From a virus (taxonomy: Duplodnaviria; Heunggongvirae; Uroviricota; Caudoviricetes), in IMG/VR virus record IMGVR_UViG_2645728048_000034, positions 1 through 62,864 of that record: DNA of 62,864 nt. One strand, written 5' to 3'. This document shows, in pieces, positions 2,165 through 17,573 of this stretch. The notes beneath the pieces were generated by a model. That model saw nothing but the letters and a program-made list of their open reading frames with translations. It was not told the DNA's origin and made no database searches. Positions within the stretch are counted from its first letter, which is position 1. Each line of letters opens with the position of its first letter. Both the position numbers and the translations under genes were made by a program.

Positions 2165-2365
2165 TCACGAGGACAGAAGTTTCTCGCAATTAAAATTTAT
2201 CAGCTTTACTTTCTGCTCTCTGGAAACGCCTGCTTCTTTTTTCCCTGAGAGCATTTTTTCGCATTCTGATTTCGTTAATTTAGATTTTGAATATCTTGTC
2301 CAGTTAGTAGGAGTGCCACCTTCCTTTTCAATAGTGGCAGTAATTTTATACATGAACACCTCCAT
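2165..2365 (-). CDS. YdaC-like small protein (DUF1187)
   Basis: Internal Met start chosen (MEVFMYKITAT...); Rac-like position upstream of lar; start uncertain. Confidence 0.4.
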   Translation of the reverse strand: MEVFMYKITATIEKEGGTPTNWTRYSKSKLTKSECEKMLSGKKEAGVSREQKVKLINFNCEKLLSS

Positions 2366-2596: not shown

Positions 2597-3406
2597 TTAT
2601 TCTTCTGAATTATCGATTACACTGTATTCCCCGGTTAATACAGAGGAGTCTGCCGGATCGATTGTCAGTGGTTCCTTTTCATCCATTGATACTGCACGCT
2701 GGATTTCAATTGAGACAGGCAGGTATTTAAACAGGCGACGAATAGCCGTTTTTTTTGCCATTTCTTCCCAGTGAGTTACCCATGGCCCGTTATTACCAGC
2801 CTTACTCTGGCTGCGCACCAGTTCAATCTGTTTGCGCGTCATAACTTCAAACTGAGTCCCTCCGTCTTTCAGTCTTGCGACAGCATAGACGTGGGTCACT
2901 GGTGCATCTTCGTTTTCTCCCGGGCGGTGTATTAACTTTTCATCAAGGCCAAATTCAAAACTAAACTCGTCACCTTCACGGACAACACGGGCTGACAGGC
3001 TGGCGATTTGACCAGAACGGCGAGCCAGATCAATCATGCCGCGATAACCAATGATTAGCTGAACGTTCTTTTTACCGCTCTTTTCGTTTTTATTACCAAA
3101 AGGCAGTAAATATGCGTGGCCGAGGGCGCTACCTGGCTCAAGGCCGAGCTGTGAACACTGAACGATCGCACTGACAAAACTCATGGTGTCACAGTTTCCT
3201 AGCGCCGGAACCTTACGAATTTCTGTGGTGGCGATACGTATCATTCGTTCAGCCGTCATATGGCGTGGGAGAGCTGCTGCCAGTTGCTCTTTCATTGATG
3301 GCTGATTAATAAAGCTGATCACGTCGTTATTTTTTACTGCTGCTGGTGCACGGTTTCCCTGGGTTTTTTGCAGATCGGCTTTTGCGATAGGTGGTTGCTT
3401 AGTCAT
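2597..3406 (-). CDS. recT: Recombinase RecT (single-strand annealing protein)
   Basis: 269 aa from [17 protein letters not shown]...; recalled near-identity to E. coli RecT. Confidence 0.9.
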
Positions 3407-6074
3407 TTGCATACTCCTTAGCCCAGCGGGGCAGTGATAACGTTTTAATAGCTGGCCATTCATCGGTATTCAGGCAGTCAGCCAGGGTCCTCAGATTGCG
3501 GTGATATTCCTGCTGGCCTGCCAGTTTTGCTTCTTCGCCCATCATGAAAATCTCAACCGGGTAACGTCCGCATTCAACAGTTGTGCTGGCAACCAGAAAA
3601 ACGAAAGTTGGCAGCACACCAAACTGTGCTTCATAACCGTCACTGTAGAATGCATCCTGAACGTGATAGCGGTAGTCGTAATAAGCCGTTTTGAATCGTT
3701 GAATATCCGCTGTGGTTTTCACGTCCATGATCCAGTGAAATTCAGGGATAATTTTGTCCGGACGGCACCGACACAAAATTCCTGTTTCAGGATCTTCCCA
3801 GTAAATTGATGATTCAGCGTGTCCGGCGCTTTCAACAAGCCATTGACCCAGCGGCAAAGCCATAACGCTCTGATACATGAGTTCAATTTTCCGGCCTTCT
3901 TCGGCAGTGATAACCGTTTTTCCTGTGCTTGCGCATTCCATCAGAAACGCTTTCTCCTCTTCTTTTCCGGCGGTTGTACGGCGGTTAAATTCAGGTGCCA
4001 CGATAAAGCGGTTACTGAATTCTTCCGGTTCAAGTACACGGCAGTGGAAAGCGGTTCCTAAATCGAGCGTTTTTGTCTTTGTGGTGTCCGCTGGGGCATT
4101 TTTACGCCACAAATACAGAGCCGGAGTATCAGCAATGTCGTCGAGCTGAGACTTACTGACACCGGGACCCGCGTGGTAATTCTCATTCGAAATTCCGTAA
4201 TAAATACCAGGCTCTATGTCTCCTGCGATTACGGGATCTGCGACTTCGCCAGTTTCATCACTGCAATCGCGATGCGGATCGCTGCCAGCATTCTCATTGT
4301 GCGGATGTTCAGGGCCTTCCATTTCCTCCGGATCTTTTTCCTGAGATTCATCCAGATTTTCTTCATTAAAGGTTTCCTGATATGTGGTGTCGCCCATCAC
4401 CGCGCCACAATCAGGGCAGTTGCCGCCACCGCTCTGACCGCGGGCGGCACAGACTTTTTCCGGTTCCTGTTGCGCTACTGGTTCAGATTGTTTCGTTTCT
4501 GGCTCATTTTTCTGTGCATTTTGGCTGTTTTGTTCCGCTTTCTGGTTGTTTTGTTCCGATTTGGGCTGGTTCTGGTTCACAGAATCTCGGGTTTCAATTC
4601 CCTTAACCCATTTCGGATCATTCGGGTCGCTAATCCCTTCAACAAATTCTCCGCGAGAGGCAGCCAGTAATTTGTCTGCATCGACAGGATTTTTGGGCGG
4701 AATGTTTTTCCGGGCTTCATAGAGTTCTGCCCGCAGTTTCTGATATTTCGCATCAACAGAATTTACCTGTGACTGAGCATCCAGCGGCTGCGTGTCCTGA
4801 TGATGTTCAGTTGCATCCGGTTCCACTGTTTCAGCCGTTGCCTGTTCATCTGCCATTGCGCAAGATGGTTGCAGTTTTTCTTCATCATCCTGTTTTTCTT
4901 CTTCTGTTACACGCTGCGGCATCGGGGCAGAGGAACGACCGCAGGCAATATCCACGATTTCTGGATCAGGGTTGGCATGATCAGTTTCAGTCAGTACTTT
5001 GTTAAGATATTCAGTGACGTGTGCGGGGATAACCTCGATCCCAATTGGTGCTTCTTTTACGGACGCAACCACGATGGCGCGGGAATAATCCAGCCCGCCA
5101 GGCATGGTGATGAATTTGTCGCGGAAAACAGAAAAGGGCGGTTTATTTTCAGCGATAATTTCCTCGACACGTTTAGCGTGTGCCGGATGAAGGTTATAAA
5201 TGTCCACGTCCATTGAACGAGCCAGTACGCCAGTGGCTACGTCGCGCGCCAGTGACGTCAGATCGTGAATGAAACCTTCGCCGCGATCGGTGAGGTTCCC
5301 GCCGCCAGCATTAGCGCCGGAAGCCGTGCGCGTGATGCGTGAAACACGGTTTCCTTTCATCCACTCTTTTGTCAGCAGACCGCGATCGGTGTAGTCTGCG
5401 TCCAGGTATGCTTCGAAAAAAGCAGTCATCAGCCCCAGGCTTGAATTGCCTGGATTAGGGAAAACTCTGTCAGTATCACGCACCAGTTTGTGGAGATCGC
5501 GAATTTCCAGCGGGTCGAGCAGGCTGGTTTTGTGGGAAACAGCCAGGGCAGTAACAGCTGGTAGTTCTTCAGCTCGTGCAATGTGTAATGCCTGTAGTTC
5601 GTTGCGTGAAACGTGCGTTACCGGTTTTTCGCTGCCGTGTTGAGCAAGCCAGCGAATGGGCAGCTCCTGACCGGAAATCGGGAGTAGCATATTCTCCTCA
5701 ATCTCCGTCATGTCTTCGCCATTAACATTGGTATTGTCAGTGCTGGCTGGCTTGTCCTGCGCAGAGGATGAGGGCGCGATAAATACCATTGTGATGCCAT
5801 CTTCCCCGCCTTTTTCGTAACGGTTGCAGAATTCCGTATCAAATACGCCTTCTGGTGGAAGGTCATCAACAACGGGCAAATTGACGCGAACAGGTTTTTT
5901 AAAGTCATCTTCATCGTAGCCAGCATCGTCAATCGCAACAGCACCACGGGAGATGGCAATGGATAATTTTTTCGCTTCAGCCCAGTAGAAACCGCCTTTA
6001 ATACCGAGACGTTTTCTTACTTTGTCATTTTTTGCTTCGTAATACAGTGGGTAAACTTGTTTATCGGTGCTCAT
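3399..6074 (-). CDS. recE: Exodeoxyribonuclease VIII RecE
   Basis: 891 aa; C-terminal exonuclease domain ([14 protein letters not shown]...[17 protein letters not shown]); overlaps recT start. Confidence 0.9.
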
Positions 6075-6173
6075 TGCTTTTTAACCTCAACTCAGATTAA
6101 AATTAATGCGAGTGATGAATAAATGTCCCAGGTTCTTCACTCAGGCCTGCACAGTGTGCAGGCTTTCTTTTTT

Positions 6174-6449
6174 TCAGATTTCACCTTTTAATTTCATTGC
6201 AATCAGAGTTGCCAGAAATTCGGCTTTTTTTTCTGCGGGCAGATTCTTTCCTATGTGCACCAGACACATTTTTTTAACACCATCGTTAAGTGTTTTAACG
6301 TTGCCTGATGGACCGTCGATATCAACCACAGTGAATGGGGTTTCTTTATTTTCTGTCTTAATCACGTAGCCAATACGCTTTCCTTCCAGGGTAACTTCGT
6401 GAACAATGTCATCAGTAGTAACAACAGTGGCTTCATAACTGGTAATCAT
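6174..6449 (-). CDS. racC: RacC protein
   Basis: 91 aa from MITSYEATVVTTDDIVHE...; Rac position after recE. Confidence 0.7.
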   Translation of the reverse strand: MITSYEATVVTTDDIVHEVTLEGKRIGYVIKTENKETPFTVVDIDGPSGNVKTLNDGVKKMCLVHIGKNLPAEKKAEFLATLIAMKLKGEI

Positions 6450-6523
6450 GTTTTTCTCCTTAATTAAGGTTGAGCGAATCCCTGCCATTGCTGGCATAAA
6501 TTCAGTTTCGGATAGTCAGTTAA

Positions 6524-6694
6524 TTAAAGTTCGTGTGCCATCTGGTCTTTTTCGGCACAGATTTCACTACAATATTTTTTCATTTCCGTCGTTGGTATAA
6601 CTCCACGCATGAAATGAAGTGGTCTTGTAATGATTTTGCTTTCTTCAATTTCTTTATTGCAAAGGTGATAAGCACATTTTATTTTCTTAGTCAT
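6524..6694 (-). CDS. ydaE: YdaE-like zinc-binding protein (56 aa)
   Basis: Sub-threshold ORF read by hand: [18 protein letters not shown]...KYCSEICAEKDQMAHEL; start overlaps kilR stop. Confidence 0.5.
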   Translation of the reverse strand: MTKKIKCAYHLCNKEIEESKIITRPLHFMRGVIPTTEMKKYCSEICAEKDQMAHEL

Positions 6695-6915
6695 TACCAT
6701 GACTCCGCCTTTACAGGTAAACCATCACGACCGAGGAAGACTTTAATCATGCAGTCAGAAATGCATGTTTTTGTAGTCAGGCTACGAATATAAAGTTTTC
6801 GCTTTTTAATATTGTTTGCCGAGGCGATATATGTCCGACCTTCATGAAGAACATAATCGCCAGGGGTCACACACTGACGTGGTATTTCATCAGTTCCGAA
6901 GTGATGAGCAATCAT
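6694..6915 (-). CDS. kilR: KilR-like cell division inhibitor
   Basis: 73 aa from [15 protein letters not shown]...; Rac gene order racC-ydaE-kilR. Confidence 0.65.
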
Positions 6916-7323
6916 AATTATCTCCATTTTTACAAATGAATTTTGTCGATGCGGTGCCTGGTGCCTCCAGGTGACGTTAACCAGTTAACAATTAACGCCG
7001 GATAATCCACCCATAACACTGATGCTTTTAACTGTGCCGCGTGCGCTTAGCCGCATTCACCGCATCACAAAATTCACTTTAAAAAGGGGCGGCAGGGCAG
7101 CCACGGAGTAGAACTGATGCCGCCAAAGACTACACATAGCAATGTCGTTATTTACAACCGGAGGCGCACTCCCACCATTTAAATTTAACAGACAAGACCG
7201 ACTCTTTATGGATATCGGAAATGCGCCTTCGTGTTGTGCCCGGTTTTATTTCACCACCTCCGGGCTTTGGTGGTTTCTGCTATACCCCTACAGCGAGAAT
7301 ATTGAATTAATCCAAATAATGGA

Positions 7324-7476
7324 TTAGCAAGTATTTCTGGCAAGCCAGCGACGTGCGCCAGCTTCGGTTTTAAACGTTTTGCTTTTGGTATACGTCATGG
7401 CGGTGAATGTGCCGTCCTGATTGGGAAACACGCCACATACCAGAGATTCGTTGTTGCCAAGATCGATAGTATCCAT
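7324..7476 (-). CDS. YdaF-like protein (DUF1391)
   Basis: 50 aa from MDTIDLGNNESLVCGVFPNQDG...; internal start of 71-aa ORF. Confidence 0.45.
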   Translation of the reverse strand: MDTIDLGNNESLVCGVFPNQDGTFTAMTYTKSKTFKTEAGARRWLARNTC

Positions 7477-7725
7477 GTTGACCTCATTTCCCCTTAACGC
7501 CGGGTGGCGGAACGTTTTATCTACTGCGCTTTGTATCAATCAACAACTGCCGTCATGTTCGTATGCCTCAGGCTGGCTACTTAGCCCTGTTCAGTGGCTG
7601 GATAACTCGAGGTATTGTCCTGCCGTTCTCTGGTGGGGCGTTGTTTGGATATGCTTATTAAACACAATACGTTTTCTTGTGTCAACACGGAATGTGTTTT
7701 GTGGTGGGTGTCATATGATGATGGT

Positions 7726-7750
7726 ACAAAAAAGCCCGCTGATAGCGGGC
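7726..7750 (-). terminator. Rho-independent terminator downstream of repressor gene
   Basis: Minus strand reads gcccgctatcagcgggc followed by T-run. Confidence 0.55.
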
Positions 7751-7781
7751 TGATTGGCATATTACTGTGATAGCAAGATCA

Positions 7782-8201
7782 TTACTCCGGTGGGGGATTA
7801 TCTTTAAGCCTGCCTCTCAAATATTTTTCTACATACTCATCGATTTCTTTTAGCCGGACTTCAAATAGCTCAATCATTCGTTGTTGTTCTGAGCCCGGTA
7901 GCTGGTTAAACAACTCAAGAAGTTTTCGTTGGGATTCATTTAACCACAATTCAGAAGATTCCTGTTCTCCAAAGAGGAGCTCAGGAGGAGATATGCCAAG
8001 TGCCTTTCCCAATATGACAGCGTCATGCACTCCAACATTTCTGCTGCCCGCCTCATAGTTACCTATACGCGATTGCGTCCATCCGCAGATTTCAGCAAGT
8101 TTTCCTTGAGATAAACCAAGCTTCTGCCTGCGCTCTTTAAGACGCATTGCAATTTTGTCATTGAGCCTACTAGCGGCAATTTTTTCGTTTTCTTTTTCCA
8201 T
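7782..8201 (-). CDS. Prophage repressor, XRE-family HTH (CI/RacR-like)
   Basis: 139 aa; HTH LGLSQGKLAEICGWTQSRIGNYEAG; divergent from cro-like gene. Confidence 0.7.
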   Translation of the reverse strand: MEKENEKIAASRLNDKIAMRLKERRQKLGLSQGKLAEICGWTQSRIGNYEAGSRNVGVHDAVILGKALGISPPELLFGEQESSELWLNESQRKLLELFNQLPGSEQQRMIELFEVRLKEIDEYVEKYLRGRLKDNPPPE

Positions 8202-8212
8202 TGCATCCTTGT

Positions 8213-8227
8213 ATCACGAATCGTGAT
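8213..8227. promoter_or_regulatory. Candidate operator: perfect 15-bp palindrome atcacgaatcgtgat in divergent promoter region
   Basis: Seen directly between repressor and cro-like genes; -35-like ttgacc about 20 bp downstream. Confidence 0.4.
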
Positions 8228-8297
8228 TTACATAAAACACAAAATAGCTTGACCATATAACACAAGGTGTGTTTAAAATTGTCATCGGAGGTTTTCA

Positions 8298-8540
8298 ATG
8301 AACAAAATTTCAACATATCGAAAACAGCTTGGGCTGTCTCAAAGACAACTTGCTGTTCAGTTAGGGTGGATACAAAGCCGACTGGCAAATTACGAAGCAA
8401 ATTTTCGTACCCCTGGACTAGAGGAGTGCAGAAAAATTGTTTCTACCCTTAATCGGCTTGGCGCTCATTGTGGACTTGACGATGTATTCCCCCCAGACGG
8501 TAAGCATAGCGAAAACAGCATAGGAGCGGTTGATTCATGA
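8298..8540 (+). CDS. Cro/YdaS-like HTH regulator
   Basis: 80 aa; HTH LGLSQRQLAVQLGWIQSRLANYEA; divergent from repressor. Confidence 0.65.
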   Translation: MNKISTYRKQLGLSQRQLAVQLGWIQSRLANYEANFRTPGLEECRKIVSTLNRLGAHCGLDDVFPPDGKHSENSIGAVDS

Positions 8541-8962
8541 AAATCAGGCATAAGCACATCGAATCAGTGTTGTTAGCCCTGGCAGCCGAAAAAGGGCAGG
8601 CGTGGGTCGCTAACGCAATTACTGAAGAATATCTGCGCCAGGGGGGGGGCGGCGAATTGCCCCTTGTACCAGGCAAGGACTGGAACAATCAGCAGAATAT
8701 CTATCACCGTTGGTTGAAAGGTGAAACGAAAGCGCAAAGGGAAAAAATTCAGAAACTGATCCCTGCGGTTCTGGCAATTCTTCCGCGCGAGCTGCGTCAC
8801 CGACTCTGCATCTTCGATACCCTGGAACGCCGTGCATTACTGGCGGCGCAGGAAGCGTTGAGTACGGCAATTGATGCGCATGATGATGCAGTCCAGGCCG
8901 TTTACCGGAAAGCACATTTCAGCGGTGGTGGGTCGCCCGGCGATTCTGTCGTAGTGCATTGA
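8537..8962 (+). CDS. YdaT-like protein (CII-like regulator)
   Basis: 141 aa; recalled similarity to Rac YdaT; contains a G9 homopolymer in frame. Confidence 0.55.
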   Translation: MKIRHKHIESVLLALAAEKGQAWVANAITEEYLRQGGGGELPLVPGKDWNNQQNIYHRWLKGETKAQREKIQKLIPAVLAILPRELRHRLCIFDTLERRALLAAQEALSTAIDAHDDAVQAVYRKAHFSGGGSPGDSVVVH

Positions 8963-9039
8963 TTGAAATTAATCGTGCCGGATTGTTTTGTTCGGTATCA
9001 GTTAAATGTAACGACGCGAGCGTTACAAGGTGAAAACAA

Positions 9040-9828
9040 ATGGCTTCAAACTGGATAAAGCTCGAGGTTATTACGCCGGATAAGCCGGAAATATTCAGGC
9101 TTGCTGAGATTCTGAATATTGATCCAGATGCCGCATTAGGGAAGGTTATTCGCTTCTGGGCATGGGCGGATCAACAAATGATAGACGGTAATGCAGATTG
9201 TAACGCTCGCGGCGTTACAAAAAGTGCAATAGATCGCATCACTTTTATGGCTGGTTTTGCTGATGCGTTAATTCAGGTTGGATGGCTGGTCGAAAATGAC
9301 GTTGGGCTTTCTCTACCTAACTTTGAACGTCATAACGGAAAAAGCTCAAAAAAACGGGCGGTTACAAACGAGCGAGTTACAAAAATACGCGAACTGAAAC
9401 GAAAAGGTAACGCTGCCAGCGTTACACAAACGGATCAAAAAGCGTTACCAGAGGAAGAGGAAGAGGAAGATCTAAATACTGATCTCCCCCTAAATCCCCC
9501 TCGCCAAAAACGAGCGTCTAAAAAATTCGAGCCGGAGGCTATTGAGCTGCCCGATTGGTTGCCGGAAACACTCTGGCATGAGTGGGTCCGGTTCAGACAG
9601 GCATTGCGAAAACCGATTCGAACGGAGCAGGGCGCTAACGGGGCGATACGGGAACTGGAAAAATTCCGTCAGCAGGGTTTTACACCTGAGCAGGTGATTC
9701 GACACAGCATCGCCAATGAATACCAGGGCCTGTTCGCGCCGAAAGGTGTTCGGCCTGAGACGTTGCTCCGACAGGTTAACACCGTCTCGTTGCCGGACAG
9801 TGCGATCCCGCCAGGCTTCAGGGGGTAA
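9040..9828 (+). CDS. YdaU-like replication initiation protein (DUF1376)
   Basis: 262 aa; position before DnaC-like loader; acidic linker EEEEEED. Confidence 0.55.
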   Translation: MASNWIKLEVITPDKPEIFRLAEILNIDPDAALGKVIRFWAWADQQMIDGNADCNARGVTKSAIDRITFMAGFADALIQVGWLVENDVGLSLPNFERHNGKSSKKRAVTNERVTKIRELKRKGNAASVTQTDQKALPEEEEEEDLNTDLPLNPPRQKRASKKFEPEAIELPDWLPETLWHEWVRFRQALRKPIRTEQGANGAIRELEKFRQQGFTPEQVIRHSIANEYQGLFAPKGVRPETLLRQVNTVSLPDSAIPPGFRG

Positions 9829-14708: not shown

Positions 14709-15055
14709 GAAAAGTCCTTTTGAACATATAGGAATATATTAGAGCATGTATGTGTGCAATGCATAAAAGGAAAAGCTACCGCAAGGCGACTCCACCCACA
14801 GATAGCTCTTAACTGATTGTTTGTAAAAAATAATACATTAATTATCTTCTGTGTAAAGAGGGAAACAGCCTTAGGGTAAGGGACACGAGTTGGAGGAGGA
14901 TTGGTGAAATTTGCGTTGAGGATAAAACGATTTGCGGGAAAAGGATAGTTAAGTAGAATAGCTGCGGGTGCTTGAGGCTGTCTGCCTCGGGCATGAACAC
15001 CAACGGCAGATAGATAAAAGCCCCACCCGACTATAAATCGAAGTGAGGCCCCTAT

Positions 15056-15268
15056 ATGCTCGTCACATATAGATTGCCTCTTACGGACCGAAAGGTCAAG
15101 GAGAAGCAGGCTATGAAGCAGCAAAAGGCGATGTTAGTCGCCCTGATCGTCATCTGTTTAACCGTCATAGTGACGGCACTGGTAACGAGGAAAGACCTCT
15201 GCGAGGTACGAATCCGAACCGGCCAGACGGAGGTCGCTGTCTTCACAGCTTACGAACCTGAGGAGTAA
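15056..15268 (+). CDS. mok-like overlapping reading frame of hok locus
   Basis: 70-aa frame starting 57 nt upstream of and in frame with hok. Confidence 0.3.
   Translation: MLVTYRLPLTDRKVKEKQAMKQQKAMLVALIVICLTVIVTALVTRKDLCEVRIRTGQTEVAVFTAYEPEE
15113..15268 (+). CDS. hokD: Hok/Gef-family type I toxin (HokD/RelF-like)
   Basis: MKQQKAMLVALIVICLTVIVTALVTRKDLCEVRIRTGQTEVAVFTAYEPEE; RBS aggaga. Confidence 0.85.
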   Translation: MKQQKAMLVALIVICLTVIVTALVTRKDLCEVRIRTGQTEVAVFTAYEPEE

Positions 15269-17300: not shown

Positions 17301-17325
17301 CTCAATCTGTTATCCGGGGCTATAT
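17297..17325 (+). promoter_or_regulatory. Candidate late promoter (PR'-like)
   Basis: TTGACT, 17-nt spacer, CTATAT just after Q stop. Confidence 0.35.
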
Positions 17326-17387
17326 TCCTCACGCGCCAGCAAAATCTGGCGTCGGGATTAGGAACCCCGGATAGAGACCGCGACAGA

Positions 17388-17412
17388 CACACGCCGCGAG
17401 CGTGTTTTTTAT
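17388..17412 (+). terminator. tR'-like intrinsic terminator downstream of late promoter
   Basis: cacacgc-cgcga-gcgtgt stem-loop plus tttttatt. Confidence 0.5.
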
Positions 17413-17573
17413 TGTCGTATGCACGCGCACATCTGAATTATGGTGGGGCGTATGGGGGAGCTGAAAAGCTCGCCGGTTGGTTTCCCGGTAGTTCCTAACC
17501 CTGTACGTCTCACCACCCGATGATTAGGAACCTGACGGTGGTGATGGTTTAGAAACCACCAGAGGGCGTCATT

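Follow-up and report, generated by a model that had tools for sequence, protein, structure and literature searches.

A predicted DicF/KilS-type small RNA gene and a structured kilR leader between kilR and the ydaF-type gene of a Rac-type prophage

Introduction

DicF, a small RNA (sRNA) of the Qin prophage of Escherichia coli K-12, represses the translation of ftsZ by direct pairing through its 3′ region, together with Hfq, and its 5′ end is used for xylR and pykA (PMC5069750). Multiplied copies of DicF are carried by EHEC (PMC7873438). KilS of the K-12 Rac prophage is a 98-nt sRNA that was predicted from Hfq RIL-seq and confirmed by northern blotting; it has its own promoter and forms chimeras with yncL (Bar et al. 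2021, PMC8175672). About three RIL-seq interactions (partner yncL) and low sRNA scores are on record for K-12 KilS, which has no demonstrated regulatory effect (PMC8175672). The kilR gene, in whose 5′ UTR KilS is encoded, specifies an inhibitor of FtsZ; it is silenced through NusG, and induction follows when the NusG level is reduced by OxyS (PMC5793797).

In Qin, dicF has a DUF1391 gene (ydfA) upstream and the cell-division inhibitor gene dicB downstream, and DicF is cut from a long operon transcript. Faubladier et al. reportedly traced, in 1990, the 3′ ends of DicF to termination and to RNase III cleavage and its 5′ end to RNase E. Sequences like dicF in other prophages are said to have been described by Faubladier and Bouché in 1994, and Melson and Kendall reportedly counted four dicF copies in EHEC in 2019.

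The genes of the K-12 Rac prophage are ordered recE, racC, ydaE, kilR, ncRNA kilS, sieB, ydaF, ydaG and racR. This order agrees with the original prediction, made from the letters of the present DNA, that sieB lies between kilR and ydaF in Rac. Here we analyzed a 62,864-nt stretch of viral DNA (IMG/VR record IMGVR_UViG_2645728048_000034, hereafter referred to as the window), in which the gap between kilR and the ydaF-type gene is an ORF-free interval of 408 bp (6916–7323). We consider it probable that this interval is a minus-strand RNA module of the early-left operon of a Rac-type prophage, consisting of a DicF/KilS-type sRNA gene and the leader of kilR.

Results

The interval is bounded by two minus-strand genes. 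On one side lies kilR (6694..6915), which encodes the 73-aa form of the FtsZ inhibitor and is served by the leader described below; its Shine–Dalgarno (SD) motif and start codon are found in GGAGATAATTATG (6925..6913), with the ATG at 6915..6913. The O157 homolog of this gene is named "kil" by PGAP. The other side, which is upstream, is formed by the ydaF-type DUF1391 gene (7324..7476, stop codon at 7326..7324; PF07151, E = 1e-29). Its product is 88% identical to K-12 YdaF, the gene is the equivalent of ydfA in Qin, and a DUF1391 gene occupies the upstream position in 91 of 101 related loci. The surroundings are the leftward-transcribed early region of a Rac-type prophage, with a recE-like gene (3399–6074, minus), a racC-like ORF (6174–6497) and a ydaE-like zinc-finger ORF (6524–6700) beyond kilR, and with an HTH repressor gene (7782–8201, minus) that faces a cro-like gene (8298–8540, plus). 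The spacer between the repressor gene and ydaF holds ydaG in K-12 Rac but none in the window. A strong intrinsic-terminator-like hairpin (AGCCCGCTATCAGCGGGCT then TTTTTTG; 7733–7751, minus) stands directly after the repressor gene, upstream of ydaF.

The original prediction held that sieB is missing from this gap and that no credible protein gene takes its place. A tblastn search of the whole window with K-12 SieB, which gave a best E value of 0.3, bore out the former, and the latter stood as well: the 61-aa plus-strand frame at 7142–7327 matches no Pfam or PHROG family. The position is nevertheless not "empty", as it had been called. The proposed alignment with the Rac kilR–ydaF interval showed window 7290..6900 to be colinear with K-12 Rac, beginning shortly before the kilS promoter and reaching to the start of kilR, and about 375 of the 408 bp correspond to the K-12 kilR–sieB spacer, which includes kilS. 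The RNA features described below lie on the minus strand; they had been missed because only ORFs were looked for. An ORF-free gap of 408 bp is by itself statistically unremarkable. What makes the interval non-random is its content, namely Rfam matches, a fold with a z-score of −5.3 and matches across E. coli genomes, 4624 of 5426 complete ones containing part or more of it.

Rfam was scanned over 5500–9500 and, at the gathering threshold, over the whole window. On the minus strand, the DicF family (RF00039) matched 7138..7087 with 60.9 bits (threshold 48; E = 4e-12) over model positions 1–52 of 52, and the match also passed the whole-window scan. The suggestion of a small-RNA locus, one of three readings that the original prediction had offered, was thus supported. 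The 52-nt DicF-family core (7087..7138, minus) lies within a predicted primary sRNA of 95 nt (7081..7175, minus), the positional ortholog of K-12 KilS, whose 5′ end at 7175 was placed from the annotated KilS 5′ end and whose 3′ end was set at the U-run (about 7081). An extended −10 element, TGTTAAATT (7182..7190, minus), was read from the sequence for a start at 7175; a simple −35/−10 promoter scan did not report this element at 7190..7182. A 93-nt stretch (7248..7156) that comprises the promoter and the first 20 nt of the sRNA is 100% identical to K-12 Rac, and the identity to K-12 KilS is unbroken over the first 38 nt or so of the sRNA.

The sRNA ends in a terminator hairpin, GGCGGCAUCAGUUCUACUCCGUGGCUGCCCUGCCGCC followed by CCUUUUU (7088..7124, minus; fold −17 kcal/mol), and the terminator scan reported a GC-rich stem with a T-run on the minus strand at 7104..7089. 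This hairpin holds the DicF-type stretch complementary to the ribosome-binding site of ftsZ. As in DicF, an RNA of about 53 nt would end in a Rho-independent terminator hairpin and a U-run. Next to the hairpin, the KilS-type stretch AUUGCUAUGUGUAGUCUUUG (7124..7143, minus) is a candidate for a single-stranded 5′ seed. With a minus-strand promoter, an sRNA, a terminator and a folded kilR leader in the interval, the second of the earlier readings, a regulatory region, was likewise justified.

Between the ydaF stop and the kilS-type promoter, a conserved segment (7238..7274, with no strand assigned) can form two mutually exclusive GC-rich hairpins (ACCACC/GGTGGT and GCCCGG/CCGGGC) and is also found upstream of sieB in K-12. 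The terminator scan did not report it, and no terminator-type T-run follows it on the minus strand.

Other RNA families were matched elsewhere in the window. RalA, the antitoxin sRNA of the Rac RalR/RalA type I pair, matched 2169–2347 (plus, 223.8 bits), and a sok antitoxin RNA (hok/sok-type) matched 14966–15115 (plus, 102.9 bits). A cluster at 17320–17520 (plus), composed of isrK, C4 antisense RNA and c4 a1/b1 targets, is an immunity RNA module of the P1/P7 type. The core-genome sRNA genes SraC/RyeA (minus) and SdsR/RyeB (plus) lie at 463–607, near the left window end, and the prophage is therefore close to the ryeA/ryeB locus. Weak matches to Trp_leader (7726–7812) and beta-tmRNA were far below threshold and were discounted.

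We aligned the window, the K-12 Rac kilR–ydaF interval and the K-12 Qin ydfC–dicB interval in the direction of transcription. The DicF model scored 76.7 bits with Qin dicF, 60.9 with the window and 39.1, which is below threshold, with K-12 KilS. The Qin and window RNAs, both above the family threshold, share the architecture of the terminator hairpin with its ACUCCGU stretch, which is complementary to the ftsZ ribosome-binding site, and their hairpin loops (UAUCAGUUUUACUCCGUGACUGCUCU in Qin, CAUCAGUUCUACUCCGUGGCUGCCCU in the window) are of the same type. They also share the conserved leader downstream, the DUF1391 gene upstream and a gene for a cell-division inhibitor downstream, although this gene is dicB in Qin and kilR in the window. 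As for DicF, the location is the early operon of a lambdoid prophage, in the order DUF1391 gene, sRNA, leader and kilR. In contrast, the 5′ 13–15 nt are wholly different: the DicF seed UUUCUGGUGAC is absent from the window and is replaced by the KilS-type AUUGCUAUGUGUAGUC. Their origins differ too: Qin DicF is excised from its operon transcript, and in the window a KilS-type promoter precedes the DicF core by about 37 nt.

K-12 KilS (b4833) and the window sRNA share the locus (the kilR 5′ UTR), an identical promoter and the leader, and the position of the window sRNA gene in the kilR 5′ UTR, with a promoter of the kilS type, is identical to that of kilS. The likeness does not extend over the whole 98 nt of KilS; only the 5′ 64 nt or so align, at about 95% identity. 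The hairpin loop of K-12 KilS is UUUUUUUCUUGAAGUUCGG, in which the DicF-type complementarity to ftsZ has been lost, whereas that of the window is of the DicF type. A further difference is that sieB lies upstream of the KilS locus in K-12 Rac and not in the window. The KilS-type 5′ part combined with a DicF-type loop and an above-threshold DicF score marks the window sRNA, judging from its sequence, as a natural hybrid of a KilS-type promoter and 5′ part with a DicF-type 3′ hairpin.

At the position of sieB, the gene and about 45 bp upstream of it in K-12 are replaced in the window by some 26–33 bp that have no K-12 counterpart, and the window is about 530 bp shorter than K-12 across the kilR–ydaF interval. 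An allele-specific filler of 26 bp (7298..7323, minus) directly follows the ydaF stop codon and forms with it a small AT-rich hairpin (TAATCCA-TTATT-TGGATTA). The original prediction had considered that the interval might be a deletion scar, that is, leftover non-functional DNA after a recent loss of sieB. The shortness of the window relative to K-12 would fit this reading, as would the greater frequency of the K-12-type interval containing sieB, found at ≥80% coverage in 1370 genomes (many of them laboratory strains) vs 167 with the compact form. However, a 71-bp query specific for the compact junction, filler included, found it in 167 of 5426 complete E. coli genomes, and it also recurs in independent phage contigs. 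The filler does not stem from K-12 sequence; it is confined to compact alleles, and diverged variants of it exist in several lineages and phage contigs, including O157:H7 strain 493/89. Everything outside the 26 bp is conserved, functional-looking sequence common to K-12, and neither the alignment with K-12 Rac nor tblastn of the whole window found a sieB remnant. Among the KilS-type IMG/VR loci in the matches listed, 9 have sieB and 14 of 23 lack it, and one contig (L087) holds a different gene allele at the same boundary. The 1755 genomes with at least 80% coverage of the interval include sieB-containing alleles and are not a count of sieB-less ones, because the K-12 allele with sieB covers 92% of the query. 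Taken together, these results make sieB an optional insertion, placed at a mosaic joint that precedes the RNA module, and the window carries an established sieB-less allele. Since sieB is optional at this joint, the allele is not a fresh deletion scar, and we regard the scar as a very improbable explanation of the interval.

Between the U-run of the sRNA and the kilR SD motif lies a structured, STnc100-like leader of 154 nt (6928..7081, minus). Its minimum free energy is −59.3 kcal/mol, whereas shuffled sequences average −38.9 (z = −5.3) and none of 200 reached as stable a fold. Several hairpins are enclosed by a closing helix of about 22 bp (7079..7058 with 6956..6934), in which the nucleotides immediately following the sRNA terminator pair with those immediately preceding the SD motif. 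One leader hairpin is CCUGG-AGGCA-CCAGG (6957..6971, minus); another is CGUUAAUUGUUAACUGGUUAACG (6975..6997, minus), which contains what had been described as a palindrome. The sequence in question, gttaaccagttaac, does exist, but it lies at 6976–6989, one base from the position first given, and consists of two GTTAAC hexamers with CA between them, which is not a true palindrome.

The alignment revealed the same leader in K-12 Rac and in the Qin dicF–dicB spacer. Further loci (at least 120) were gathered from IMG/VR by a scan for the leader region's first 23 nt. The 117 comparable leaders, including those of the window and K-12 Rac, comprised 64 different sequences of 185 nt, which reduced to 58 once they were trimmed to the conserved blocks. 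Among these 117 loci the leader occurs upstream of both dicB and kilR, and two near-invariant blocks flank a variable middle. In the GUUAAC hairpin, compensatory double substitutions, one from G-C to U-A and one from U-A to G-C, affect two pairs in 4 of the 58 variants, and the changes in the closing helix are only wobble-compatible ones (C-G to U-G in 8 sequences and G-C to G-U in 18). Covariation thus agrees with the fold but is sparse, since the conserved blocks hardly vary. Given this sparseness, and given that the loci were collected with a pattern inside the leader, the conservation may be at the DNA level, for example as a recombination joint.

The leader aligns with the whole 206-position model of STnc100/PasD (RF02076; 7097..6908, minus), and this full-length match scores 44.3 bits, below the threshold of 47; the corresponding scores are 34.4 bits for Qin and 28 for K-12 Rac. 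Shared with STnc100/PasD are the closing helix GGUGAAU...CACC, the GUUAAC hairpin and the CCUGGAGGCACCAGG hairpin. According to the literature, STnc100 is an element associated with prophages of E. coli and Salmonella, and its published copies sit elsewhere, for instance downstream of stx2, whereas the window leader lies upstream of kilR. The central part of the kilR leader (query 260–374, with the GUUAAC and CCUGG hairpins) is also about 85% identical to sequences in the P1-like phages P7 (AF503408) and D6 (MF356679), where the copies stand outside a Rac/Qin context.

Within the leader, a 29-aa minus-strand frame (7019..6930) ends just before the kilR SD motif, and it could in principle be a leader peptide. 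It matches phrog_24763, a family of unknown function (E = 5e-13); no stop codon interrupts it within the conserved block in any of the 58 scorable variants, and it continues in-frame into dicB in loci of the dicB type. The open frame is uninformative, though, because the DNA of this block hardly varies. The frame starts at a GTG without an SD motif, and in many variants a start codon is lacking upstream of the block, on which grounds we rejected the peptide; phrog_24763 most likely collects ORFs miscalled on the conserved RNA leader. As the 61-aa plus-strand frame (7142–7327) is without a family match and is antisense to the sRNA, there is hardly any chance that a small protein encoded by either frame explains the interval.

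The 3′ half of the window sRNA is complementary in silico to the ribosome-binding site of ftsZ, as is characteristic of DicF. With ftsZ positions −35 to +6, it gave a predicted duplex of −31.5 kcal/mol, an energy reached by 4 of 500 shuffles; in the same test, K-12 DicF gave −27.9 kcal/mol (23 of 500) and K-12 KilS −25.9 kcal/mol (54 of 500), all three values ignoring the cost of opening the hairpin and being only modestly better than shuffles. By this calculation, the duplex of the window RNA would be at least as good as that of K-12 DicF and better than that of K-12 KilS. When the whole sRNA was paired with ftsZ −60 to +30, shuffles scored equally well. As the DicF 5′ seed is absent, the window sRNA should not regulate xylR and pykA. 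Regarding yncL, its 5′ UTR holds a plausible site (ACACAUAG...GCAAUG) for the seed of KilS and the window; pairing of the window allele's seed with this site was no better than with shuffles (99 of 300). In duplex prediction with yncL, KilS and RprA both favored a site 3′ of the ORF.

These predictions bear on whether the RNA acts in trans at all, since the hairpin and leader might merely be an attenuator and a 5′ UTR that keep kilR off, with the short RNA as a by-product. The terminator does lie inside the kilR 5′ UTR, kilR is known to be controlled at termination (PMC5793797), and the few RIL-seq interactions and low scores of K-12 KilS (PMC8175672) would agree with such a role. The window hairpin, however, keeps the DicF-type complementarity to ftsZ that the K-12 KilS hairpin has lost, and the window RNA passes the DicF family threshold. 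Moreover, DicF RNAs of identical architecture act in trans (PMC5069750), and even the K-12 counterpart, KilS, has been detected in Hfq RIL-seq chimeras (PMC8175672). We therefore think it unlikely that the module works in cis only, and favor an sRNA gene combined with a kilR leader.

The seed candidate of the sRNA resembles part of RprA. AUUGCUAUGUGUAGUCUUUG (7143..7124) matches, at 19 of 20 positions, an RprA stretch that is written in upper case, as most conserved, in the Rfam consensus; the match extends to about 24 of 26 positions with one gap. Both RNAs contain AUUGCUGUGUGUAGUCUUUG as a single-stranded stretch that immediately precedes the terminator hairpin. When the window was searched for the RprA 20-mer, this site was the one match, and 100 shuffles of the window gave none. 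K-12 KilS also carries the RprA-like stretch (compared sequences: K-12 RprA, L003 173–278; K-12 KilS, L001 2906–3003, minus). The rest of RprA, including the stem-loops that pair with rpoS, is missing from the window sRNA, and a linker of 20–30 nt is all that is common. The RprA model (RF00034) scored 32.2 bits, far below its threshold of 70 (E = 0.45); the element is therefore not an RprA gene. A literature search found no paper linking KilS and RprA. It is conceivable, though doubtful, that the RNA is a chimeric sRNA whose 5′ stretch is a functional copy of the RprA element while its hairpin separately represses ftsZ.

The full-length hybrid sRNA is present in 86 of 5426 complete E. coli genomes. 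In about 1400 other matching genomes, only the 5′ two-thirds of the sRNA align (11 listed rows cover 64–67%). O157:H7 strain 493/89 has an identical sRNA in the same gene order, in a gap that is unannotated. Parts of the interval match 41 sequenced phages, with a full-length match in vB_EcoS-683R6, and the annotation of phage Tritos names the element DicF.

The make-up of related loci was typed for 122 loci among the matches listed; this set is redundant, and the numbers are indicative only. At least four seed types occur, which are that of DicF (UUUCUGGUGAC), that of KilS (AUUGCUGUGUGUAGUC), CCAUGUGUAGU and CCAUGUUGAUU, along with at least three types of hairpin loop, and the downstream gene is dicB, kilR or another. 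The DicF seed and DicF loop with dicB form the commonest combination among these listed loci (71 of 122), followed by the KilS seed and KilS loop with kilR (17). The combination seen in the window, a KilS seed and a DicF loop with kilR, was found in 3 of the 122, the window included. Other recombinants among the listed loci join a DicF seed with kilR or a KilS seed with dicB. On the evidence of these alignments, the sRNAs of the DicF/KilS type look to be mosaics that recombine around an invariant terminator base and leader.

Discussion

The element described here is of the known DicF/KilS kind, which is common in E. coli prophages, and by analogy it would work as those RNAs do; this hybrid form may so far have gone without a description of its own. 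From the sequence family, predicted structures, conservation and distribution established in this analysis, we infer transcription in this strain, dependence on Hfq, repression of ftsZ, attenuation and processing. A promoter identical to that of kilS would start an sRNA of about 95 nt, in which a KilS-type 5′ part is followed by a DicF-type terminator hairpin, and longer transcripts running through ydaF could be processed to an RNA of DicF size (about 55 nt). Like DicF, the RNA would act in trans: together with Hfq, its hairpin and 3′ half would base-pair at the ribosome-binding site of ftsZ and reduce FtsZ synthesis. The single-stranded 5′ stretch may serve as a second seed with targets unlike those of DicF.

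In cis, the intrinsic terminator would halt most transcription before the toxic kilR gene. RNA that reads through would carry the 154-nt leader, whose long closing helix, a plausible substrate of RNase III, likely corresponds to the site that this enzyme cleaves beyond dicF in Qin. The leader lies where NusG/Rho-dependent silencing of kilR may be expected to act; the RNase III site and the place of Rho action are proposed by analogy with Qin and K-12. The adjacency of the sRNA and kilR would thus put an RNA brake on ftsZ translation beside a protein inhibitor of FtsZ, as with dicF and dicB in Qin.

If the RprA-like stretch were indeed a functional copy, Rac-type prophages, by means of KilS or the DicF-type hybrid, would tap or compete for some of the targets of RprA or its handling by Hfq and RNase E. 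Prophages would then shuffle the seed, the hairpin loop and the downstream toxin gene (dicB or kilR) as cassettes around the invariant terminator base and leader.

RefSeq annotates nothing in the interval, although a DicF-family sRNA gene immediately precedes kilR. The features recently found to predict severe O157:H7 disease include variation in kilR itself and in about 25 bp upstream of it (PMC12711010). Given this gap in the annotation and the disease-linked variation, deletions or comparisons of "kilR upstream" sequences must reckon with an sRNA gene, a terminator and a leader further upstream. The field's current understanding is left unchanged by this locus, in which sieB proves to be optional and not fixed in the region. 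What the locus would add is an extension to Rac-type prophages of the arrangement found in Qin, where an RNA inhibitor of ftsZ translation stands beside a protein inhibitor of FtsZ.
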